From positions 234,838 to 298,837 of the forward strand of contig JAUQQN010000001.1 in the NCBI GenBank assembly GCA_030549845.1: a stretch of 64,000 bases of DNA. The letters are read 5' to 3'. Within the stretch, counting starts at the first letter, position 1. Each line of letters starts with the position of its first letter. The position numbers and the translations under genes were made by a program. Origin of the DNA: Patescibacteria group bacterium. Its GTDB lineage: Bacteria; Patescibacteriota; Minisyncoccia; UBA6257; HR35. This document shows, piece by piece, positions 3,782 to 46,798 of this stretch. The notes under the pieces were generated by a model. The model was not told where the DNA came from, searched no databases, and was given only the letters and a program-made list of their open reading frames with translations.

Positions 3782-4022
3782 ATTAGGTATATCATTTTTT
3801 TATTTTTTCAATTCCTTAAGAAAAACAAAGGGTTAACTTATAGCCGAAAATTAATTAAGAATTTAAGTCTGAATTCAGGAGAATATTTCTTTAAATATTT
3901 TTTTATTTTTGTTATCAATCTTATTTTTAATTAAAGACAAAACTACCATATATACTTTAATATAAGAATGGTTAATTTAAAAATCTAATTCTCTTTTGTT
4001 AATTTATTAAAAAGCTAAAAAT

Positions 4023-4967
4023 TTATTCTAAGTTTTCTTTGAACCATTCAACTGTAATTTTTAAGCCTTCATCTAAAGATACTTTTGGTATCCAACCTAA
4101 TTCTTTTTTGGCCTTAGAATAATCTAAGCAACTTCTTCTTTGTTCTCCAGGTTTTCTAGGTCCATGAATTTTTTTACAATTTGAACCAGTTAATTGTTTT
4201 AACTTTAGAAAAATTGTATTAATTGTTGTTTCTTTACCAGTCCCAATATTATAAACTCCGATCTTATTCTTCTTTATTGCTAAAATAAAAGCATTAACAA
4301 CATCATCAACATAAACAAAATCTCTAGTTTGTTTTCCATTACCATTAATTATTGGTTGGTCACCTCGAAGCATTTTATCACAAAAAATAGCAATAACGCC
4401 AGCTTCCCCTTTTGAGTTTTGTCTTGGCCCATAAACATTAGCTAACCTTAAAGCAATGTAAGGGATTTTAAAAACTTGAAAATAATAATTTAAATATTTT
4501 TCTACAGTCAATTTCTCAATTCCATAAGGGGAAAGAGGAAATTCAGGATAGCTTTCTGGAGTAGGAATAATTTTAACATCTCCATAAATAGCTCCACCAG
4601 TTGAAGCAAAAACAATTTTTGTGATTTTATTGTAATTTTTATAATGATATAATTTAGCGAAACTTTCAATAATATTTAATGAACCTAAAATATTTATTTC
4701 AGCGCTTTTAATAGGATTTTCAACTGATTTTCTAACATCAATTTGGGCTGCAAGATGATAAATTATGTCTGGTTTTTCTTTCTTAAATATTTCAAAAATT
4801 TTAGATGAGCAAATATCAATTTTATAAAATCTTGCTTTTTTATTTAAATTTTCTTTTTTACCTGACGAAAGGTTATCTATAATAATTACTTTGTGCTTTT
4901 CCTTAATTAGTCTATCAACTAAATGCGAACCTATAAATCCTGCTCCACCTGTGACTAAAATTCTCAT
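4023..4967 (-). CDS. NAD-dependent epimerase/dehydratase (UDP-sugar 4-epimerase-like, GalE family)
   Basis: MRILVTGGAGFIGSHLVDRL Rossmann motif at the N-terminus, and YxxxK in ...YGIEKLTVEKYLNYY. Typical extended SDR. Confidence 0.85.
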   Translation of the reverse strand: MRILVTGGAGFIGSHLVDRLIKEKHKVIIIDNLSSGKKENLNKKARFYKIDICSSKIFEIFKKEKPDIIYHLAAQIDVRKSVENPIKSAEINILGSLNIIESFAKLYHYKNYNKITKIVFASTGGAIYGDVKIIPTPESYPEFPLSPYGIEKLTVEKYLNYYFQVFKIPYIALRLANVYGPRQNSKGEAGVIAIFCDKMLRGDQPIINGNGKQTRDFVYVDDVVNAFILAIKKNKIGVYNIGTGKETTINTIFLKLKQLTGSNCKKIHGPRKPGEQRRSCLDYSKAKKELGWIPKVSLDEGLKITVEWFKENLE

Positions 4968-5956
4968 TTTTGTAAAAGTTTAATCCACTTATTTTTAAAT
5001 TTTAATGCTTTTTTAAAAGAAAGTTCAATACCTGTTTTTAAATCTATTTTTGGCTCATAGCCTAAAATATTTTTAATTTTTGATAAATCTGGTTTTCGAA
5101 ATTCAATATCAGTAAATATATCTCCTCTTTCTTTTGTTGGCAAGTAAATGACATCAATATCTTCATGTAAAATTTTTAATTTTTTAGCAATTTTAATCAT
5201 TAAATCTTTTAGCTCATTAATAGAATAGATTTCTTTGTCATTACCAATATTAAAAGTTTCTTTGCATTTATTTTTTATTAAATACTTTACCCCTAAAATA
5301 AATCCTTTAACTGTATCATCAATATAACAAAAAGCTCGTTTTTGATTCCCGTGTCCAAAAATTGTGATAGGTTTTTTAAAAATAATTGAATATAAAAAAC
5401 TTGCAAAAACACGCGATGGTTTTTTTAAATCTACACCGAACCCATATGTATTAAATATTCTAAAAATAATAAAGGGTAAATTTGAAAGTCGTATAACATT
5501 TTCTTCTAAACATTTAACATGGGCATAATTCCACCTATTAGAAAATTCAAATACAAAAAAATCATCTTCTTTAAAACTTTTCTTCTTAAATATCCCTAAC
5601 AAACCGTAAACATCAGAGCTTGATGAAAAAATTATAGGTTTATTATATTTCTGAGCAATCTTGGTTAAAATTAAGGTATTTTTCAAATTCTGAATAACTT
5701 TTTTAAAATTTTTTATTGTTATATCAACTCCAACTATGCTTGCAAGATGAATAATTAAATCTACATTTTTGACTATATTTTCTAAAATATCCTTATTTAT
5801 TTCTGAACGATATATTTTAATATTTGAATTCTTTTCCAATAATAAACCAGTTCCAGAAGAAAAATCATCTAGAATAAAAACAAAATTATTTTGAGATAAT
5901 GCATTTGATAGATAACTTCCTATAAATCCTGCCCCTCCGGTTATAAGAATTTTCAT
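4964..5956 (-). CDS. NAD-dependent epimerase/dehydratase family protein
   Basis: MKILITGGAGFIGSYLSNAL Rossmann motif. The likely start is the internal MKIL at 5956; the ORF is open back to 5998. It overlaps the upstream epimerase stop by 4 nt (operon). Confidence 0.75.
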   Translation of the reverse strand: MKILITGGAGFIGSYLSNALSQNNFVFILDDFSSGTGLLLEKNSNIKIYRSEINKDILENIVKNVDLIIHLASIVGVDITIKNFKKVIQNLKNTLILTKIAQKYNKPIIFSSSSDVYGLLGIFKKKSFKEDDFFVFEFSNRWNYAHVKCLEENVIRLSNLPFIIFRIFNTYGFGVDLKKPSRVFASFLYSIIFKKPITIFGHGNQKRAFCYIDDTVKGFILGVKYLIKNKCKETFNIGNDKEIYSINELKDLMIKIAKKLKILHEDIDVIYLPTKERGDIFTDIEFRKPDLSKIKNILGYEPKIDLKTGIELSFKKALKFKNKWIKLLQK

Positions 5957-5986
5957 ATTGATAAATTTTAACTTAAAATTTTTAAA

Positions 5987-6124
5987 ATGAGTTTGCAAAA
6001 TAGAGATTATTATAAAGAAAAATTAAAAGATATAGAAAGAGAGGAATCAAAAAGGAGCATTTTTGTTATTGGAGTAGTCCTTTTAATAATTTTAGCCTTA
6101 CTTTTAAGTTTGATAATATTTTAG
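5987..6124 (+). CDS. Possible small membrane protein (45 aa), unannotated
   Basis: My translation: MSLQNRDYYKEKLKDIEREESKRSIFVIGVVLLIILALLLSLIIF, with a C-terminal TM helix. It is below the ORF-track size cut-off and there is no homology evidence. Confidence 0.25.
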   Translation: MSLQNRDYYKEKLKDIEREESKRSIFVIGVVLLIILALLLSLIIF

Positions 6125-6131
6125 ATAAAAA

Positions 6132-6653
6132 TCAAATATTTCTATTAATTTCTATTGAATGTTCATTTAGTAATTGAATAATTCGTTTTATTAAGGAATC
6201 TTCATTTGGGAAATCTAAGTATTGAATTTCATCTTTATAAAATGTGCTTAATGCTAATATATGGTAAACAAGACATTGAGAATAAATATTAGGGAATTTT
6301 TCCCTTAAGTTATTAAATTCTTTACTAAATTTCTCAGTTAATTCAGGGCTTTTTTCTAAAATTCCATAAATTTTTGTTTTAAAATTCATTAATTCTTCAA
6401 CAAACCTTTCGTATAACTCATCTTCTTTAAGCTTTTGAATTTTCTTTTTTTCATTTCCTATTATTTGTTCATTATCTTTTAAATTAAACTCTAAAATAAC
6501 TAACAAAAGATTTCTTATATCTTCTTCGCTAATAAGGTTTTCCTTGATCAATCTCTTTACAACACTTTTTATTCCTTCCTTATTTGATGAGTTTATTAGT
6601 TTTTTGTTTTCTGGATGTTTTTTCATTGCCTTAATTATAGCAAAATATAACAA
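6132..6653 (-). CDS. Hypothetical protein
   Basis: 173-aa ORF from the track with no recognisable motif. Palindrome copy B lies about 80 bp upstream. Confidence 0.45.
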   Translation of the reverse strand: MLYFAIIKAMKKHPENKKLINSSNKEGIKSVVKRLIKENLISEEDIRNLLLVILEFNLKDNEQIIGNEKKKIQKLKEDELYERFVEELMNFKTKIYGILEKSPELTEKFSKEFNNLREKFPNIYSQCLVYHILALSTFYKDEIQYLDFPNEDSLIKRIIQLLNEHSIEINRNI

Positions 6654-7188: not shown

Positions 7189-8517
7189 TTAAATTGAGGA
7201 ATAAATTTCTTTTAGGGCTTTGATTCCCTTAAAGAACATTTTTTCATCAAAGTTTTCATTAGGTGCATGGACATTGTCGTCAGGTAAAGTAAAACCAGTT
7301 AAAATTATTGGTTTTTTATATATTCTTTGTAAAACCTCAGCAGCTGGTATAGATCCACCAGCACGATTAAAAACAACCTTATTTCTAAAAACTCTCTCTA
7401 GAGCATTTTTTGTTTTAACAATAAATTCATTATTCAATGGAGTATAAAATGGAGCTGCTGAACCTAAAAGTTTTAATTCCCATTTTACTCCTTTTGGTAT
7501 ATTTTTTTTAATAAAATTCTTTACTAGTTTGATTATTTTCTCTGGTTTTTGATATTCAATTAATCTAAAAGAAAATTTGACGGCTGCTTCTTTAGGAATA
7601 ATTGTTTTTACTCCTTCCTGAGTGTAGCCAGATATTATTCCGTTTATATCCATTGAAGGATAAATTTTTGGTGAAAGTGAAGGTTCTTTTTTATCCAATG
7701 GATGGATTAAGTAAAGCTTAGTTTCTTTTAAGATTTCTTTTTCTTTAATACTTGCCAATCTTAGTAGCTCTTTTTCTTTTTTATCAATTTTTCTAACATC
7801 TTCATAAAATCTAGGGATTAATATCTTTCCTGTTTTTAAATCTTTCATTTTTGAAAATAAATCTGCTAAAAATTGAACTGGATTTAAAGCTAAATTTCCA
7901 TAGCTCCCTGAATGTAAATCATATTCTCCAACCTTTATTTTTAATTCAAAATAAACAATACCTCTTAAAGCATAATAAATTGTTGGTACATTCTTTTTAA
8001 TCATCCCAACATCCGTTAAATAAAAAACATCAACCTTTGATAAAACATTTTTTGCTTTTTTAACATATTCTTCAAAATGAGAACTTGCTGATTCTTCTTC
8101 ACCTTCAACCAGAAAAACAATATTATTTTTTAATTTATTTTCTTTAATCAATTCTTCAATTGCAAAAATATTTTGAACAATATGTCCTTTATTATCAGCA
8201 ATTCCTCGACCATAAATTTTTCCATCTTTCAAAGTTAATTTAAATGGTGGTGTTTTCCATTCATTAATTGGTTCTTCTGGTTGAACATCATAATGGCCAT
8301 ATATCCCGATTGTTTTTTTACCACCAATAAATCTATGAGCTAAAACCAAGGGTGGAGAGCTTTTTTCTTGAATTAATTTAACTTTAAAACCAAGAGATGA
8401 AAATTTATTTTTCAAAAATTCTGCAGCTTTTAAAATATCATTAAACCTTTCTTTTTGTGTTGAAACAGAGGGGATTGAAATAAAATCAGTTAAAAAGTTT
8501 AAAATTTCATTTTTCAT
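7189..8517 (-). CDS. M20-family metallopeptidase (dipeptidase / ArgE/DapE/CPG2-like)
   Basis: GIYGHYDVQPEEP ... RGIADNKG ... VEGEEES metal-binding blocks of peptidase family M20. Confidence 0.8.
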   Translation of the reverse strand: MKNEILNFLTDFISIPSVSTQKERFNDILKAAEFLKNKFSSLGFKVKLIQEKSSPPLVLAHRFIGGKKTIGIYGHYDVQPEEPINEWKTPPFKLTLKDGKIYGRGIADNKGHIVQNIFAIEELIKENKLKNNIVFLVEGEEESASSHFEEYVKKAKNVLSKVDVFYLTDVGMIKKNVPTIYYALRGIVYFELKIKVGEYDLHSGSYGNLALNPVQFLADLFSKMKDLKTGKILIPRFYEDVRKIDKKEKELLRLASIKEKEILKETKLYLIHPLDKKEPSLSPKIYPSMDINGIISGYTQEGVKTIIPKEAAVKFSFRLIEYQKPEKIIKLVKNFIKKNIPKGVKWELKLLGSAAPFYTPLNNEFIVKTKNALERVFRNKVVFNRAGGSIPAAEVLQRIYKKPIILTGFTLPDDNVHAPNENFDEKMFFKGIKALKEIYSSI

Positions 8518-8535
8518 AGAAAAATTATACTATTT

Positions 8536-9621
8536 TTACTTAGCAATTTGTACAACAAATTCTTTTAAGACTAAATAAAACTTATTTAAATCTTCTTTAT
8601 CTATCCATTCTTTATCTGAATGATGACCTCCACCTTTAGGTCTAATTAGAATAACAGGTATATTTTTTTCTTTAAAAAATCTAGCATCACTTGAACCATG
8701 CGAAAAGGCATAGCCTGTTTCGATTTTGAATTTCTCTTTCGCTATTTTTGAAAATAATTTTAAATAATAATTATTTCTTTCAACTTCATAAGGAGACCCT
8801 TCTACTAAATTTTCTATTTTTATTTTTCTAAATTTTTTTAACAAATTTTTAATTCTCTTAAGGATTTTATTTCTCTGCTTAAGATCAATATACCTTATAT
8901 CAATAAAAGCTTCTGCATAATTTGAAACTTGATTTGTTGCTTCTCCTCCTATAATTTTTCCTATGTTTAATGTATTATGCCAATGGATTTTGTTTTTGCA
9001 TGGTTCTTTAGGAAAAATTTTTGCAAGATTATTCAAAAATCTTAAAAGGTTTTCAATTGCTCCTTCTCCTTCCCAAGGTCTTGAACCATGTGCTGATTTG
9101 CCGTAGCTTTTAACTTTTAAATGCCAAACACCCTTGGCTTTGATTTCGAAATTCCAATTTTGACCTCCATCTGGCAGAAAACAGATTTTACAAGAATAAC
9201 CTTTATCTAAGATGGCTTTAGTTCCTTTAAACCCACCAATTTCTTCATCAGTTGTTATCATTATTCCTAAATCATATTTTTTTAAATCTTGATTTAGTTC
9301 TTTTAGAAGCTGTAAATAACAAGCAATAGCAAATTTCATATCATATACTCCTCTCCCCAAAATTTTCTTTTTTTCAATTTTTAATTTAAAAAGTTCTTCT
9401 GGTCCTGGTACTACATCAAGATGGGCAGATAATAATAATTTCGGCTTTTTTGTTTTGTGAGCAGTAATAAATAAAGATGGGTAATTATCAAAATTAAATT
9501 CTTTTATAAATACAGGTAATTTGTTAATTTCTTCTTTTATCCAATTAATTGCTTTCTTATTCTCTTCTTTGTTTTGGGGAATTGTTTTAAAAGAAATTAA
9601 TTTTTGTAAAATTTCTAACAT
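8536..9621 (-). CDS. M20-family metallopeptidase (ArgE/DapE-like)
   Basis: SAHLDVVPG ... GRGVYDMKFAIA ... ITTDEEIGG. Likely start at the internal MLEILQKL (9621); the ORF is open back to 9729. Confidence 0.75.
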   Translation of the reverse strand: MLEILQKLISFKTIPQNKEENKKAINWIKEEINKLPVFIKEFNFDNYPSLFITAHKTKKPKLLLSAHLDVVPGPEELFKLKIEKKKILGRGVYDMKFAIACYLQLLKELNQDLKKYDLGIMITTDEEIGGFKGTKAILDKGYSCKICFLPDGGQNWNFEIKAKGVWHLKVKSYGKSAHGSRPWEGEGAIENLLRFLNNLAKIFPKEPCKNKIHWHNTLNIGKIIGGEATNQVSNYAEAFIDIRYIDLKQRNKILKRIKNLLKKFRKIKIENLVEGSPYEVERNNYYLKLFSKIAKEKFKIETGYAFSHGSSDARFFKEKNIPVILIRPKGGGHHSDKEWIDKEDLNKFYLVLKEFVVQIAK

Positions 9622-9708
9622 GATTAAGTTATGTTTTTTCTCTATTATAGACCCTTCACGACAAAAGTTGGATTCTTTGTCTTTATAAAAAATTTTAACC
9701 AAAAATAA

Positions 9709-9734
9709 GGGGCGTGGAGTTCTTAACACGCCCC
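9709..9734 (-). terminator. Rho-independent terminator hairpin GGGGCGTG-(10 nt loop)-CACGCCCC, followed on the minus strand by TTATTTTT
   Basis: 8-bp GC stem seen directly. It lies just downstream of the GCS2-like gene and marks the lower boundary of the GC-rich island. Confidence 0.6.
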
Positions 9735-9748
9735 CGACTTTCTTGGAT

Positions 9749-10597
9749 TTAGTGGGTCTTCCTCTTCTCTACAAAAACACGCATCACCTCCTTTATTATT
9801 TCTTGTATCCCGTATAGAGAGGTGGAGTCAAATACCCGAATTTCGATTGTTCCTAGACTCCACCTCGGCCGGCACCACCACCATACACATCCTTCACTCA
9901 CTAAATCACCAGGCTGGGAGGGACTCTTTAGATCCACCTCCCAGCCGTTTTCTTTTTTTCTGATAAGGCGTGGGATAGAGCGGAAATGATTCACTACATC
10001 CTCCCATGTCTGAAACCGAGACCATTGTCCTGGCTGGGCTGGTGCCCTCCTAGGATCACACCAGCCCCACCAACATCTCGCTCTGTTCTTGCTGGCATAC
10101 TCCGTAAAGTTAATGTTGAAATGATTTAACAACGTCAGCCCTTCCCACGACTGTAATAAACCGGGGAAAGAAATATGGACGTGAACAGAAGAAACTAGGG
10201 CCATCCGCAGAACTCCCCACCACCTCCTACCCACCTCTTTCTCAAGGGCCCTCCAAAGAATCCTATAGCGATCCTTTGGGGCCCAGAATTTCCGAATTTC
10301 ATGCAGCTTCAAATTAATTAAGTTGGCATCAACTGGTACGAAGTGGATATCCACCTCGCCCAGCCTTTTTCTGGTCTCTTTTAAGACCAGAAAGTACTTC
10401 TCACTAAGTTCCTCCCAACTGGAGGAAGGATATATAGCCCACTCAATCTGGTGCCTGCCGGCATCAGTTTTGATGATGCCGGCTCCAGCAACCTCTAGAC
10501 CCTCGCCTACAGCTTCCCATACGTCCACGGGCTCGCCATTTTTATAGACGAACCCCTCCACTTCAATCCCTACAGTTAACTCTTTCGGCCACTTCAT
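9749..10597 (-). CDS. Glutamate-cysteine ligase family 2 (GCS2/YbdK-like) carboxylate-amine ligase, short form, in a GC-rich island
   Basis: Three collinear blocks match E. coli YbdK: LTVGIEVEGFVY (cf. FTLGIELEMQVV), SSVHVHISF (cf. GQHVHVG), GTIEIRVFDST (cf. GTVEVRVMD), with similar spacing. The region is about 50% GC against a roughly 28% genome. It has a strong SD, GGAGGTGA, 8 nt before the ATG. Confidence 0.6.
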   Translation of the reverse strand: MKWPKELTVGIEVEGFVYKNGEPVDVWEAVGEGLEVAGAGIIKTDAGRHQIEWAIYPSSSWEELSEKYFLVLKETRKRLGEVDIHFVPVDANLINLKLHEIRKFWAPKDRYRILWRALEKEVGRRWWGVLRMALVSSVHVHISFPGLLQSWEGLTLLNHFNINFTEYASKNRARCWWGWCDPRRAPAQPGQWSRFQTWEDVVNHFRSIPRLIRKKENGWEVDLKSPSQPGDLVSEGCVWWWCRPRWSLGTIEIRVFDSTSLYGIQEIIKEVMRVFVEKRKTH

Positions 10598-10826
10598 TTT
10601 AACTCACCTCCGTTTAGGGTTCTTTTTAAAATTAAAAGGGCCGGGTTGGCCCCGGCTGAAGTGATATAAAATTTTTATTTTTAAACTAAATCACCTCAGC
10701 CGGAGCACCTCGGCCCAAAATAACAAACAAAACAACTGAATTTCTTTTTGTAAGCATTGTTTGTAAATAATACTATAATCAACAAATTTATTTTTGTCAA
10801 GGGTTTATGAAATATTTTTAACAAAT

Positions 10827-11450
10827 TTAAATAAGTGTAAGTGATTTTAAATAATTTTCTTCTATTTTATCCCAATTTACAACATTCCACCAAGCTTGAA
10901 TATATTCATTTCTTCGATTTTGATATTTCAAATAATATGCATGTTCCCAGACATCTAAACCCATAATCGGCAAATCTCCATTCATTAAAGGATTATCTTG
11001 ATTTGAAAGTGAATAAACTTTTAATTTTTTATCTGGAGTTAAAACAAACCAGGCCCAACCTGAACCAAAATGTTTTAAGGCTGTTTCGGAAAATAAATTT
11101 TTAAAATTTTCAAATGAACCAAATGCTTCATTAATTGCTTTCAAAATTTCTCCTTGTGGCTGACTCCCTCCTGGTTTCATAATCTCCCAAAAAAGAGTGT
11201 GATTGGCGTGACCGCCGCCATTATTTCTTACGGTTGTTCTTATTTCTTCTGGCAACTGATTTAAATTCTTTAAAATTTCTTCTAATTCTAAATTATGAAA
11301 TTCTGGGTATTTTTCTAAGGCTGAATTTAGATTATTAACATAACCTTGATGATGCTTAGTGTGATGAATTTCCATTGTCATTTTATCAATATAAGGCTCC
11401 AAGGCATCATAGGGATATGTAAGTGGCGGTAACTCATACGGATATTTCAT
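10827..11450 (-). CDS. sodA: Fe/Mn superoxide dismutase
   Basis: [14 protein letters not shown] and [15 protein letters not shown] signature blocks. Confidence 0.9.
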
Positions 11451-11471
11451 TTTTAAAAAAATAAATTAATT

Positions 11472-11980
11472 TTAATCGAATTTTTCAGAGTAGTATTTTA
11501 ACTCATCAAACATACTTAACAAAAATTCTCTATAAGTTTCCTTTTCTTTCTCAAAATTCTGAACATTAGAAAAATAAACAGCATTTCTTAAGGGAATCAT
11601 CGAAAGTTCAATACATACTAATCTTAATTGTTCAACCATTCTTGCGCCACCTAATTGACCAATAGAAACTCCACAAATACCAACTGGTTTATGAGCATAT
11701 TCTTCATAAAAATTATCAAGCAAAAGTTTTAATTCCCCTGGAAAAGAATGATTATATTCTGGAGAAACTATAATGAAACCATTTGCTCTTTTAAAAATAT
11801 CTGAAAGTTTTTTTCTTTTTACTTCATCCATTTCACCAGTAAAAGGAGAATCTAACCAATCTCGGGGTTTAATTAACTCAACTTCAAAACCATAATTTTT
11901 GCTTCTTCAAAAACAAATTCAGCAATTTTTTCTGAATTAGCTCCTCTTCTTCCTGTGCCAAGTATGATTGGAATGTACAT
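11472..11980 (-). pseudogene. NAD(P)H-dependent FMN reductase (flavodoxin-like), interrupted by a -1 frameshift in an A5 run
   Basis: N-terminal MYIPIILGTGRRGANSEKIAEFVFEEAK from the ATG at 11980 hits a stop. In the -1 frame it continues NYGFEVELIKPRDWLDSPFTGEMDEV into the ORF-track 11472..11831 protein. The break is at the homopolymer at 11896-11900; one extra A restores ...EEAKNYGFEV... Confidence 0.6.
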
Positions 11981-19241: not shown

Positions 19242-19296
19242 TTTACTAAAGTAGTTATGATAATTAAAAAAGTACAGTTTTCTGCACCTCAGCAAG

Positions 19297-22221
<2,925 letters not shown>

Positions 22222-22421
22222 TTGCTGAGGTACAGAAAACTGTACTTTTCATCAATTACTTTCTTTGTAAATTTAATATAAGGGTGCTATATCCACTTTT
22301 ATTTCTCTAGCTTCTTTGGCTATATTTAGAATAAAAATAAAAGAAAAAATTCAATAACCCTCAAATCTTATCTTTCTTACTAAAATTAATTATATATTAA
22401 ATGTTGATAAATTTCAAGCAA

Positions 22422-43837: not shown

Positions 43838-44544
43838 TTTTCTATTTTTATTTGGTCTGAGCTAAATTCAATTGGATTATCTATATTTGTAACAATAACC
43901 TTTACTTCGCTTCCATTTTCGAGCCCTTCGGGATCAAATAAAAGGCTGTAATAAAATTTATTAAAAACATTCCAAGCAATTGATAAGTTATCTGAAGAAA
44001 AATTAAATGTCAAAGGAAAAAGTTTTTCATTTTTTTCGATTCTTCCAAAAGGCAAAACTACATTAAGTTCTTCTAAGTACCTTACAATAGAAACAGCAGG
44101 CAAATTTTTTTGTTTAAAAACAAAACTATATTTCTTGTCAAAACTTAAATCATTTGAATAAATTCTTACTTTTCCTGAAAGAAGTTTATTTTTTGATTCG
44201 AAGTGCAAAAGTGGTTTATGGGTCTCATACGTTGCTTGGCTTCCTTCAAAAAATAATACCCATTCATAATTTAATAAATCAGGCTTATATTTAGAAAAAT
44301 CTGCTTCAATTCCTATTAAATACTTATCTCCATTTTTCTGAAACGAAAAATAAGCAAAATCTTTTTGAGAAAAAACAAGGCTATAAGAAAAAAGCGAGAA
44401 AATAAAAATTATGAGTAAAATTTTAATAAATTGTGAATTAATTTTCATAAAATTATTATAAAATATCAAATGGTTTCTCCAATTACTTCTTCTTGTTGCT
44501 TTTTTACTTCTTTCTTTAATGACCTTAATCTTTTCACTCTCCAA
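43834..44544 (-). CDS. Hypothetical N-terminally anchored protein
   Basis: 236-aa ORF with an N-terminal TM helix. No motif. Confidence 0.4.
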   Translation of the reverse strand: MESEKIKVIKERSKKATRRSNWRNHLIFYNNFMKINSQFIKILLIIFIFSLFSYSLVFSQKDFAYFSFQKNGDKYLIGIEADFSKYKPDLLNYEWVLFFEGSQATYETHKPLLHFESKNKLLSGKVRIYSNDLSFDKKYSFVFKQKNLPAVSIVRYLEELNVVLPFGRIEKNEKLFPLTFNFSSDNLSIAWNVFNKFYYSLLFDPEGLENGSEVKVIVTNIDNPIEFSSDQIKIEK

Positions 44545-45005
44545 AGCCTTCCTCTAGAAACTAGCATTGTTAATGTTTTTATTGGAGCAATTTCTATTAA
44601 GCTTCCTATTATTGGAATAAAACCAAAGAATTCTATCGCAACTAAGAAAACATAAACACCTCCTTCAATTTGAGAAAGGTATCCATTTTTAGTATAATAA
44701 AATATCAAATATAAAAACAGTAAGGCTCCAGGTATCTCAAAAATCAAAGGAATGATTCCTAAAATACTTAAAGCTCCTGCACTTGCTAACCCTATTATAC
44801 TAAATATAAATTCAAAAATATCTGCTGTTATTAATAAAATAAAGCTTAGATACCAAATCCAGCTTATATAATGAGGTTCTTCCTCTTCTTCAGTTGTCTC
44901 TTCAAATTTTTTTAATCTTCCTGATTTTTGTAAATAATCTTCTTTTTTCTCTTCGGTGTAATCTAATTTTTTAATTTCAGAATTTGTTTCAAACACTGCC
45001 TTCAT
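44466..45005 (-). CDS. Small polytopic membrane protein immediately upstream of the VirB4-like ATPase
   Basis: Acidic N-terminus, then three to four TM helices (ISWIWYLSFILLITADIFEFIFSIIGLASAGALSILGIIPLIF...). Confidence 0.45.
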   Translation of the reverse strand: MKAVFETNSEIKKLDYTEEKKEDYLQKSGRLKKFEETTEEEEEPHYISWIWYLSFILLITADIFEFIFSIIGLASAGALSILGIIPLIFEIPGALLFLYLIFYYTKNGYLSQIEGGVYVFLVAIEFFGFIPIIGSLIEIAPIKTLTMLVSRGRLWRVKRLRSLKKEVKKQQEEVIGETI

Positions 45006-46798
45006 TGATTTTTCAAAGCTTCTTTTATTGCCATTAATTGCTCTAGGGAAGCTTTAATTATTTGATCTTCAGCATAAGATGCTAAAACATACAAAGGAAT
45101 TCTTTTAAGACCAGCAATTAAAATTCCTCTTCCTCTTTCAGCTTGTATTAAAAATCTTTTTTCGCCTTCAGATAAGGCAAATACTTGGCCTACTGTATCA
45201 ATTGTTGTTGGTGATTGTTTCATTAAAAATGTAAGTGCAGAGTTTGTAATTATAGGCTTACCATAAGGAGAGCTCAAAAAATCATCTATATCTTGAGTTA
45301 TTGTGGTTATTCCTAAAAGATATTTCCTACCTCTTTTTATTGCATTAAGCAAAAAATTAGCACCTGATTCATTTTTCATTATCCACCATGCTTCATCTAT
45401 TATTAAAATTCTTTTCTTTCTTTCTCTTCTTATTTTATTCATTAAATCATTCAAAACAATATACATACCAATAGGTCTTAACTCTTCTACTAAATCTTTA
45501 AACCCAAAAACAACTATTCTCTTTTTAAGATCAACATTTGTTGGTTGATTAATAAAACCACTAAAACTACCCTGAGTAAATGGATATAATTTTTCAGCTA
45601 TAGACTTACCTCCTTCTATACTTAAAAGAACTTTTTCTAAGTCATTTAATGTAGGGAAAACTTCTATTTTTCCAAAATCTGTATCAGGTAAAATATTAAA
45701 GGAAGCATACGTTTGGCTTATTGCTCTATCTAATATAGTAAGTTCTTCTGCGTTAAATTTCTCACCTGCTATAACTTCTAAAAGTCCAATTATATCACTA
45801 ACTTTTTCTTTGTATACATCTTCAGGATTTTCTCCCTCAAGTAAAGGAGGTAAATCAAGAGGGTTAATTTTGTGCTCTGATCTTAAAGAAATTGGTATAA
45901 AAGATCCTCCATAAACTTCAGCTATTGATTGATATTCATTTTCTGGGTCTAACACAATGACATCTTGCCCCATCATTAGATTTCTCATAATTTCAATTTT
46001 TGCAGTATAACTTTTACCTGATCCTGATCTTGCTAAAATTACCATATGAGCATTCTCAAAAGCAAATCTATCGAGAAGAACCAGGGAGTTGTCTTGCAAA
46101 TTAATACCCATCAAAATTCCTTTTTCCATAGACAATTCTGATGAGATAAATGGGAAAAATGAACTTGCGGCAGATGAGTTCATTACATATTCTATTTGAA
46201 GTCTATTAGAATTAAGAGGTAGTGTTGAAAAGAAAGCATCTTCTTGTTCAAATATAATTGGTTTTGCAACAATTAAATTACTTTCTAAAATTTTTATAAT
46301 TCTTTTTTCTTTTAATAATAATTCATCTTTATCTTCAGAAAATATAGTAAGATATAAAGCAACATTAAATATCTTTTCTCTTCCTTGTACTATAGCATCC
46401 CTTAATTCCTCTATATCATTGTAGGCTGTTTCAAGTTGTGGGTCTCTAGGCAAGCCTTTTTCTTCAATTTCTATTAATTGACTTTCTACTCTTAAAAGCT
46501 GTTTTTGTAATTGCTTAAGAATAACTCCAGGATCTCTAGGAACAAAATAAATCGAAAGATTAAAAGGCTCTTCTAATGCTAAAAGATTTTCTAACCAACC
46601 AGCAAACAAAAATCTTGGATAAGTAATTATAGCTATAACCTTTCCATAAACTTCTCCTATTTGAAAATCAGATACCCCAAATAAAGCTCCTGGAGGGGCT
46701 ATTATATTTTTTATTTTCTCAAAACCTTTTGCCTCCTCGATTTTAACGATAGGAATCCCTTTATTTGTTTGTTGGAAAAATGGTAATTTGAATGCCAT
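45002..46798 (-). CDS. VirB4/TrbE/CagE-family type IV secretion ATPase (short, 598 aa)
   Basis: Walker A VILARSGSGKSYTAKIE, Walker B RILIIDEAWWIMK, C-terminal ITTITQDIDDF, and an N-terminal VirB4-like domain. Confidence 0.8.
   Translation of the reverse strand: MAFKLPFFQQTNKGIPIVKIEEAKGFEKIKNIIAPPGALFGVSDFQIGEVYGKVIAIITYPRFLFAGWLENLLALEEPFNLSIYFVPRDPGVILKQLQKQLLRVESQLIEIEEKGLPRDPQLETAYNDIEELRDAIVQGREKIFNVALYLTIFSEDKDELLLKEKRIIKILESNLIVAKPIIFEQEDAFFSTLPLNSNRLQIEYVMNSSAASSFFPFISSELSMEKGILMGINLQDNSLVLLDRFAFENAHMVILARSGSGKSYTAKIEIMRNLMMGQDVIVLDPENEYQSIAEVYGGSFIPISLRSEHKINPLDLPPLLEGENPEDVYKEKVSDIIGLLEVIAGEKFNAEELTILDRAISQTYASFNILPDTDFGKIEVFPTLNDLEKVLLSIEGGKSIAEKLYPFTQGSFSGFINQPTNVDLKKRIVVFGFKDLVEELRPIGMYIVLNDLMNKIRRERKKRILIIDEAWWIMKNESGANFLLNAIKRGRKYLLGITTITQDIDDFLSSPYGKPIITNSALTFLMKQSPTTIDTVGQVFALSEGEKRFLIQAERGRGILIAGLKRIPLYVLASYAEDQIIKASLEQLMAIKEALKNQ

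Follow-up and report, generated by a model that had tools for sequence, protein, structure and literature searches.

A GC-rich, hairpin-dense gene for a minimal GCS2/YbdK-type carboxylate-amine ligase in Patescibacteria

Carboxylate-amine ligases (CALs) form a superfamily defined by acidic metal ligands and two active-site arginines near core strand 5, and within it Iyer et al. described a GCS2-sized 'new CAL' family whose genes adjoin a GATase-like thiol peptidase and for which the synthesis of glutathione-like peptides was inferred (PMC2588565). A short and divergent relative is encoded in the stretch of DNA considered here, 64,000 nucleotides of contig JAUQQN010000001.1 from a Patescibacteria group bacterium of the candidate phyla radiation (CPR), hereafter the window. 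Its gene, a miniature GCS2/YbdK-type CAL gene (9749..10597, minus strand; 282 residues, GC 0.49, GC at third codon positions (GC3) 0.53), lies in an island of about 0.49 GC (9700-10720) within a window of about 0.26 GC, and a preliminary description of the stretch had read this island as a recent horizontal acquisition, possibly a small mobile cassette. Other described systems resemble the locus in single respects. In the PuuA/PuuD cycle a ligase of the glutamine synthetase (GS) fold and a peptidase C26 hydrolase act on polyamines; the leader-peptide attenuators of trp, his and pheA place a short upstream open reading frame (uORF) over a terminator hairpin, followed by a U-run and then the structural gene; and the vls locus of Borrelia is a GC-rich, recombining variation locus in an AT-rich genome. 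Where an AT-rich genome has a GC-rich island, that island usually encodes a structured RNA.

In the ligase family represented by this gene, GC-richness, dense hairpins, a strong Shine-Dalgarno (SD) sequence and a leader made of a uORF and a terminator occur together. The reading favoured here, at a probability of roughly one half, is that of a resident and specially regulated mini-GCS2 ligase gene whose GC content and structure are maintained in place and whose alleles are exchanged among relatives. On this reading the gene would be a long-standing resident of the Patescibacteria rather than a newly landed cassette, its high GC content would be tied to dense local hairpins along the coding sequence (CDS), some of them preserved through compensatory changes that also alter the protein, and divergent alleles would circulate among related CPR genomes, with homologous recombination substituting one for another at a fixed locus. 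Selection for nucleic-acid structure may be what keeps the GC content high.

GC excess and allele replacement across related loci

In 300-nt windows the GC content is 0.47-0.49 across 9750-10649 against 0.21-0.32 on either side, in agreement with the GC-rich island amid AT-rich DNA of the preliminary description, and elsewhere in the window only the 23S rRNA gene is comparably GC-rich. The ligase gene differs from four neighbouring genes in GC3 (0.53 against 0.13-0.21), and its product is rich in Arg and Trp where the neighbours favour Lys, Asn and Ile. The strong canonical SD that had been said to set the gene apart (GGAGGTGA, 10604..10611, minus strand) is the only one longer than 4 nt among the 58 open reading frames (ORFs) of the window, 53 of which have no 4-nt match to AAGGAGGTGA at -20 to -4; the count is approximate, as the start codon was taken to be the first ATG of each ORF. 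Such foreign GC, GC3, amino-acid usage and SD would be expected of a recent, un-ameliorated import from a moderately GC-rich, SD-using donor, with the low-GC members of the family being older, ameliorated imports that have lost their structure. This explanation carries some weight but appears unlikely in view of the relatives of the gene.

Genomes representing species, metagenome contigs and look-ups of exact proteins supplied the DNA of homologues; the ligase homologues with collected DNA are 33-44% identical to the window protein, and their loci are designated by L numbers. GC excess was compared only where the flank was 200 nt or longer, and at 13 of the 15 other CPR loci with a measurable flank the gene exceeds its flanks by 6-24 points. 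The difference between gene and flank is about +0.22 in the window, +0.24 in L021, +0.23 in L009, +0.18 in L005, L007, L010 and L016, +0.16 in L002 and L012, +0.14 in L008, +0.12 in L006 and +0.10 in L013; it falls to +0.06 in L015, where the surroundings themselves are at 0.44 GC and hence offer little contrast, and is about 0 in L003 and L022. L004 and L011, which have low-GC genes, and L014 (gene GC 0.46) had too little flank and were left out. Since the same excess is found in divergent homologues, the anomaly is a trait of the family and is not specific to one locus, and high GC is a maintained property of this gene family rather than the fading signal of an import. The SD reaches at least 5 nt at 12 of 15 ligase-family loci against 8 of 91 other ORFs, and even the low-GC alleles keep it, which a recent import does not explain. 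Also against a recent import, the anomaly is seen in three or more gene contexts, partner genes and leader have been conserved along with the gene, and a set of 1.84 billion representative proteins yielded no GC-rich donor. Carriers with names are Pacebacteria/Paceibacterota, Minisyncoccales and, for one partial protein, an Aenigmatarchaeota metagenome-assembled genome (MAG). The family therefore provides a multi-locus counter-example to the use of deviating GC, codon usage and SD as signs of recent horizontal transfer.

The loci L006, L008, L010 and L013 have ten neighbouring genes in common. Between L008 and L010, which are close relatives, the neighbours are 98-99% identical in amino acids (synonymous divergence, dS, 0.035-0.107; non-synonymous divergence, dN, at most 0.01), whereas the ligases are 77% identical (dS 0.61, dN 0.155, dN/dS 0.25). 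The divergent block (about 5942-6930 in L008) extends from just past the conserved leader to the terminator, matches the GC island, and is a mosaic of 98% patches among 65% patches; the leader lies outside it, in the conserved backbone. In other syntenic pairs the ligases are 65-74% identical and the neighbours 82-97%, and a similar disparity is found between L005 and L021 (M20 peptidase 85%, ligase 54%) and between the window and L021 (57% and 44%). Divergent alleles have been swapped by homologous recombination at one locus among related CPR, and the replacement takes in the untranslated regions and has its end points in AT-rich flanking DNA, which implies that related CPR were the donors. 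Among alleles dS is 0.6-1.5, and GC3 is 0.44-0.49 against 0.23-0.34 in the neighbours; with synonymous sites near saturation and GC3 still high, the GC content is maintained and not a remnant of import. At a dN/dS of 0.13-0.25 the ligase is under purifying selection, though it is the fastest-evolving gene of its neighbourhood, about 10-fold above the neighbours. What survives of the horizontal transfer first proposed is the replacement of divergent alleles at the locus, and the recent import itself is mostly unsupported.

The locus resembles Borrelia vls in its locally raised GC within an AT-rich genome and in segmental, mosaic replacement. It differs in that the 64-kb window contains no array of silent cassettes, and in that the product is a predicted cytoplasmic enzyme under purifying selection and not a surface antigen. 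Variability is also found elsewhere in the syntenic loci. Two positions downstream of the ligase lies a gene for a protein of 116-131 residues, here 'small116' (L008 7776-8126, L006 7729-8085, L013 7717-8112; uncalled in L010), which has no Pfam or PADLOC match, a GC3 of 0.41-0.49, and 62-64% identity where other genes show 82-97%; its excess structure is slight (z -0.3 to -2.3). A third variable patch (L008 4741-5045, L010 4675-5025) is located between the TP-methylase and GATase genes, with 28-66% identity in genomes otherwise 96-100% identical, a GC content of 0.35-0.38 and, in L008, a 71-residue ORF.

A recombination hot spot subject to GC-biased gene conversion (gBGC), with the hairpins incidental or themselves recombinogenic, would account for the coincidence of variability and raised GC in the ligase, in 'small116' and in the third patch, and for the mosaic nature of the tracts, and gBGC has been proposed for bacteria (PMC4450053). 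By itself, however, gBGC makes neither inverted repeats nor compensatory changes in stems, it leaves unexplained that folding, as described below, reaches a z of -5 to -7 relative to composition-matched shuffles, and 'small116', being GC-elevated with little excess structure, indicates that the two signals are separable. A rise of 25-35 points in GC3 is, to our knowledge, also far above the effects on record for bacteria. As the source of the whole pattern gBGC is therefore judged improbable.

Recent import finds support in the closest relative of the window protein, P0001 (NCBI MEM5815515.1), which is 86% identical overall and 100% identical over a stretch of about 95 residues (residues ~38-133). 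P0001 is partial, being encoded at one end of a 12-kb contig that was assigned to the Aenigmatarchaeota (archaea). The gene may have crossed between domains, or a CPR contig may have been mis-binned; the archaeal annotation hints at a real long-range transfer. In a neighbour-joining tree the low-GC alleles L004, L011 and L003 with L022 are placed among the GC-rich ones, L004 being sister to the window allele. Since low-GC alleles are interspersed in this way, the GC state has switched at least three times, and scattered low-GC, unstructured alleles also fit an import followed by amelioration, as does the low contrast of L015 in its 0.44-GC context.

Folding of the coding sequence and its leader

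For the CDS, folding was compared with permutations of synonymous codons that keep both the protein and the codon usage fixed. Native GC-rich ligase mRNAs are 30-59 kcal/mol more stable than these permutations (38-44 for the window), with z-scores of -4.4 to -5.1 in the window, -7.3 in L006, -7.1 in L013, -6.6 in L002, -6.2 in L008, -4.8 in L010, -4.6 in L021, -3.3 in L005, -2.7 in L015 and -1.9 in L014. The low-GC alleles show no such excess (L003 -0.8, L022 +0.4, L004 +0.8, L011 +1.1), and all four have z above that of every one of the ten GC-rich alleles, for which the exact one-sided rank probability is 1/1001. For comparison, the 54 other ORFs of the window have a mean z of 0.02 (sd 1.35). 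Against dinucleotide-preserving shuffles the 941-nt sense RNA (-352 kcal/mol) has a z of -7.1 and the antisense RNA one of -5.0; for scale, a 941-nt piece of the host 23S rRNA folds at -408 kcal/mol. The structure is local, with nine helices of 9-12 bp on the minus strand of the CDS between 9819 and 10555 (10529-10555, 10457-10483, 10368-10393, 10338-10359, 10254-10278, 10181-10234, 10036-10067, 9912-9946 and 9819-9866). These data show that dense local inverted repeats have been selected for, or generated, in the GC-rich alleles, with either RNA or DNA as the relevant molecule.

Some of the hairpins occupy homologous codons in distant alleles with different sequences. For instance the stem at the WAPKxRY motif is AAGGATC/GATTCTT in the window, AGTCGC/GCGATT in L005 and AGCAAA/TTTGCT in L008-L013, and the encoded residues change in coordination. 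A consensus structure for the five GC-rich alleles of the syntenic loci has 32 helices with 218 pairs; 91.5% of its cells are paired, against 37-49% when the partners are slid, and 20 pairs have changed on both sides, against 5-8 with slid partners and 9.6±2.2 after shuffling (none of 500 shuffles reaches 20). A single RNA architecture conserved throughout the family was considered and rejected, the consensus of eight alleles being weak, and a common structure is backed only within the syntenic clade. Enrichment of internal SD-like GGAGG/GAGGTG motifs was likewise dismissed as a family trait because it is significant in the window allele only, where GAGGTG occurs six times on the coding strand and codon permutation predicts 1.6; a 10-mer related to it, CACCTCGGCC, is found four times on the plus strand, two of these in the leader hairpin. 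Other alleles do not show this.

It is conceivable, if still doubtful, that the CDS doubles as a structured nucleic-acid element under selection of its own, kept by compensatory substitutions of which some change amino acids. If so, structural constraint would drive both the high GC content and the fast divergence of the protein, and would leave the gene reliant on its strong SD and ribosome-gated leader. Such structure might tune the lifetime or translation of the mRNA, for example by unfolding under heat or stress in an SD-poor, AT-rich CPR cell, or could instead act at the level of DNA by promoting allele exchange. In both cases a single sequence would hold a protein gene and a structured element that evolve together throughout a bacterial lineage. 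No description of such nucleic-acid-level traits of the ligase gene was found in the literature searched. The combination in one gene of hairpin density, protein-altering compensation, about 10-fold divergence with replacement and a putative ribosome-gated leader is an unusual and tractable case for studying nucleic-acid structure as both a constraint on protein evolution and a driver of it.

The leader is laid out like a leader-peptide attenuator. On the minus strand, a sigma-70-like putative promoter (TTGACA-17 nt-TATAGT, 10772..10800, 11 of 12 consensus matches), whose TTGACA box recurs at the equivalent site in L002, L008-type loci and L021, is followed by a 23-codon uORF (MLTKRNSVVLFVILGRGAPAEVI*, 10686..10757), a candidate leader peptide gene that spans the 5' arm of a long imperfect hairpin (10638..10716) and stops at its AT-rich loop. 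This hairpin, a candidate attenuator or terminator, dominates the fold of the 163-nt leader (-60.5 kcal/mol, z -5.8) and is followed by a U-rich tract (CUUUUAAUUUUAAAAAG, 10620..10637), with a terminator-like site called at 10656..10640, and then by the SD. Downstream of the gene, an intrinsic terminator (9700..9735, minus strand) consists of the hairpin GGGGCGTG...CACGCCCC (9709-9735) and the T-run UUAUUUUUG (9700-9708), at -21.8 kcal/mol and z -3.3, and an equivalent GC hairpin and T-run follow the gene in L002, L005, L006-L013 and L021. uORFs of like design with a similar hydrophobic core, LF[IV]IL, are present at ten other loci (L002/L012/L016, L006, L007-L010, L013 and L021). The inner stem of the leader is homologous between the window (CCGGCTGAGGTG/CACTTCAGCCGG) and L021 (GCCGGCTAAGTG/CACTTAGCCGGC), and the gene upstream of the leader differs, being a superoxide dismutase (SOD) gene in the window and CofD in L021. 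In L005 the contig is cut inside the leader, which there (55-200) carries an insert of about 130 nt with repeated ATTCGCG/CGCGAAT motifs; the insert lies within a hairpin, GGATCTT...AAGATCTT, whose counterpart in L021 is continuous.

Promoter, short uORF, long terminator hairpin, U-run, SD, gene and intrinsic terminator would together make a single-gene transcription unit. Ribosomes translating the uORF would open the leader terminator, and from this layout ribosome-dependent attenuation seems plausible. The likeness to the trp, his and pheA leaders extends to the promoter, the overlap of the uORF with the 5' arm of the hairpin, the U-run and the structural gene. The leader peptides differ in having no run of codons for one sensed amino acid, and the window leader matches no Rfam leader family: with permissive thresholds over 9000-11500 Rfam gave only sub-threshold, chance matches of the leader hairpin to miRNA precursors. 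An alternative antiterminator pairing was not found in the minimum free energy (MFE) or centroid folds of the leader, in a search that was not exhaustive. It is also plausible that a heavily folded mRNA would need an explicit SD where initiation otherwise relies on unstructured, AU-rich leaders.

Both hairpins seen in the preliminary description, the terminator hairpin and the long inverted repeat with its AT-rich loop, are thus real, but as boundaries of an island they resolve into an ordinary terminator and a conserved uORF-terminator leader. They had suggested a small mobile cassette, whether integron-like, MITE-like (miniature inverted-repeat transposable element) or of another kind, with the two hairpins as its ends, and a single hairpin-bounded gene in at least three gene contexts has something of that appearance, as has the presence of other genes in L017 and L020 at the equivalent place upstream of the M20 peptidase gene. 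The hairpins, however, are conserved together with the gene, and in L008/L010 the leader falls outside the variable block. No attC cores (RYYYAAC/GTTRRRY) are present on either strand of 10625-10730, no recombinase or transposase lies beside the ligase at the loci examined, and no relatives were found on plasmids, phages or viral contigs (IMG/VR), so that a mobile cassette is very improbable. Flanking direct repeats considered as target-site duplications were weak AT-rich matches judged to be due to chance. The flanking hairpins recur with the gene in other genomes, and a search for empty sites by way of M20 orthologues gave no precise one: what lies upstream of M20 in L017, L018 and L020 is either different genes or uncalled DNA, not ligase homologues. 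The genes in question in L017 (1498-2637) and L020 (694-1644) are unrelated, have no Pfam family and stand upstream of an orthologous M20 gene. The one in L017 (L017_379) matches ATP-grasp below threshold (E 0.03-0.09) and contains the motif VVKPxxGSSGxGV, a hint that the slot may there be filled by an amide ligase of another kind.

Several observations weigh against a resident gene maintained for its structure, in addition to the archaeal annotation of P0001 and the scattering of low-GC alleles noted above. Covariation was tested on only five sequences, related to one another, which also supplied the structure, and over eight more distant alleles RNAalifold yields a consensus of only -45 kcal/mol, its covariation term being unfavourable. 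The antisense strand retains 69-98% of the excess folding energy; the sense strand has the larger excess in all eight alleles, by a small difference. What is conserved is therefore 'structuredness' rather than one architecture, and a mutational process could also yield it. A regulatory codon run was not found in the ligase uORF, and the window holds no homologue of GATase, TatD or BpsA, which accompany the ligase elsewhere in the family. The resident gene is nevertheless preferred to recent import, against which stand the conserved leader, the conserved partners and the GC excess at other loci.

The ligase subfamily and its gene partners

The ligase gene is the sole open frame of the island, with 284 open codons on the minus strand and 9-24 stops in each of the five other frames. 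Its product is elusive in searches with a single sequence: the window protein alone has no match to PF04107 or any other Pfam family and none in a PDB sequence search, and the YbdK family model TIGR02050 reaches it with 25.7 bits (E=6.7e-6) over the last 62 residues only, against a cutoff of 176.4. A word-indexed homology search returned one relative only, and an exhaustive HMMER scan of the 1.84 billion representative proteins found 72 at E<1e-3 and 9 at E<1e-30. As single-sequence Pfam and PDB searches are uninformative, a family profile is needed, and this profile matches E. coli YbdK (1R8G, E=1.1e-12) and Salmonella 1TT4 (E=2e-11) in two collinear blocks each; 12 of 32 relatives reach PF04107 individually (best E=9.2e-12). 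The link to PF04107 fails for the window protein by itself and holds for its family.

In a 44-sequence alignment G10, E12, E14, E52, R243, E252 and R254 are invariant, and R245, H139 and H141 are near-invariant in close relatives. The three blocks first singled out as signatures, TVGIEVE, HVHISF and GTIEIRVFD, are all present and fall on such columns (G10 E12 E14, H139/H141, E252 R254). By alignment mapping, the invariant Glu and Arg residues appear to correspond to the metal ligands and arginine fingers of the superfamily. An AlphaFold2 model built on the family alignment (pLDDT 96.7, pTM 0.92) has plant glutamate-cysteine ligase (GCL) 2GWC as its top Foldseek match in the PDB (E=4e-8, TMq 0.66), followed by YbdK 1R8G, 1TT4 and E. 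coli GshA entries and, more distantly, by glutamine synthetases.

The family has in common with YbdK/GCS2 (PF04107, TIGR02050, 1R8G) the collinear N-terminal GxExE...TDaG..qiE and C-terminal WW.RPR...GTxExRxxD blocks, the GCL/GS fold and the conserved metal-binding Glu and Arg. The window protein itself remains below the Pfam and NCBIfam thresholds. The family differs in extra conserved Trp-rich motifs, in a GC-rich, hairpin-dense and fast-evolving gene with a uORF-terminator leader, and in length: with 282 residues against 372 for E. coli YbdK the window protein is indeed some 90 residues shorter, as had been stated, its chain ending about 25 residues past the GTIEIRVFD strand, so that most of the C-terminal helical region of the full architecture of about 370 residues is missing. 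The Trp/Arg-rich motifs of the C-terminal half are present as described, but they are not the oddity they were taken for, WWGWCDPRR and WWWCRPRW being the family-conserved WxGWAxxxRLP and WWxxRPR. The assignment as a miniature GCS2/YbdK-like ligase, borne out by profile homology, fold and conserved residues, holds at the superfamily level for a truncated, divergent member. The rare, CPR-centred subfamily of minimal GCS2 ligases defined here is a short new branch of a known superfamily.

These results also bear on the possibility that the island encodes a structured non-coding RNA with a fortuitous ORF, for which the strength of the folding would speak and which had been raised as an alternative in the form of a match to a structured RNA family. 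Nothing in the island matches Rfam at gathering thresholds in a scan of the whole window, and the long open frame, the dN/dS of 0.13-0.25, the catalytic residues conserved across 44 homologues and the confidently modelled GCL fold make a purely non-coding element exceedingly improbable. The CDS may yet have a dual role, coding and structured RNA at once.

The ligase gene is always found beside an amidohydrolase gene, which is of one of two kinds. A class-I GATase/peptidase C26 gene adjoins it in L002, L003, L006-L010, L012, L013 and L016, with TatD and a BpsA-like polyamine synthase nearby in this GATase-linked set, whereas an M20 peptidase gene lies directly downstream in the window, L005, L021 and L022. 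In the window the M20 metallopeptidase gene (8536..9621, minus strand; Pfam PF01546/PF07687; likely start ATG at 9621) follows the ligase, and an Fe/Mn SOD gene (10827-11450) and an FMN reductase gene (11472-11831), both assigned by Pfam and on the minus strand, precede it. L021 has the order ligase-M20-FMN_red-SOD-BpsA_C; the window has the same M20/FMN-reductase/SOD set in another order, and between the two SOD is 85% and FMN reductase 82% identical. The named closest relatives of the window M20 peptidase are from Nealsonbacteria, Pacebacteria and Wildermuthbacteria, all Patescibacteria, which places the host in the CPR.

A ligase of the GS/GCL superfamily beside an amidohydrolase suggests a make-and-break cycle of a gamma-glutamyl amide. 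The ligase would make gamma-Glu-Cys or a gamma-glutamyl-amine/polyamine, and the adjacent amidohydrolase (M20 here, GATase/C26 in other branches) would hydrolyse or recycle the product. The SOD, FMN reductase and BpsA-like genes point to redox or polyamine metabolism, and from this context gamma-Glu-Cys or a gamma-glutamyl-polyamine would be the most plausible product. The 'new CAL' family, for which a similar function was inferred, is by its description alike in size, superfamily and, at most loci of the present family, in its GATase/C26 neighbour (PMC2588565); the M20 partner of the window, L005, L021 and L022 sets these loci apart from it. The likeness to PuuA/PuuD lies in the pairing of a GS/GCL-superfamily ligase with a class-I GATase/C26 hydrolase and in the BpsA-like polyamine synthase nearby in two neighbourhood types; PuuA differs as a full-size glutamine synthetase homologue and not a GCS2 protein. 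The constant pairing with amidohydrolases and the link to SOD, FMN reductase and polyamine genes point to a small system of gamma-glutamyl thiols or amines in CPR, organisms considered to be without glutathione-type metabolism. PADLOC profiles of anti-phage defence gave no match for the ligase, its GATase partner or 'small116'.

Some further features of the loci may be noted. Two tandem M20-family genes (7189-8517 and 8536-9621) lie directly downstream of the ligase gene in the window, and only the proximal one (8536-9621) is linked to the ligase at other loci. A few genes from the low-GC ligase homologue of L022, a protein of 790 residues (4000-6372) has MJ0043_C and faint LAGLIDADG matches. 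The window contains eight tRNAs and a complete bacterial 23S rRNA gene (19286-22229) without an intron-sized insertion, and as no 16S or 5S rRNA gene was detected in the 64 kb, the rRNA genes appear to be unlinked. A small membrane-protein gene (44466-45005; DUF4112, sub-threshold) was considered as a second structure outlier because its z is -5.3 under codon shuffling, but at -2.1 under dinucleotide shuffling it is not exceptional; it precedes a VirB4/TraG-like type IV secretion ATPase gene at 45002-46798.

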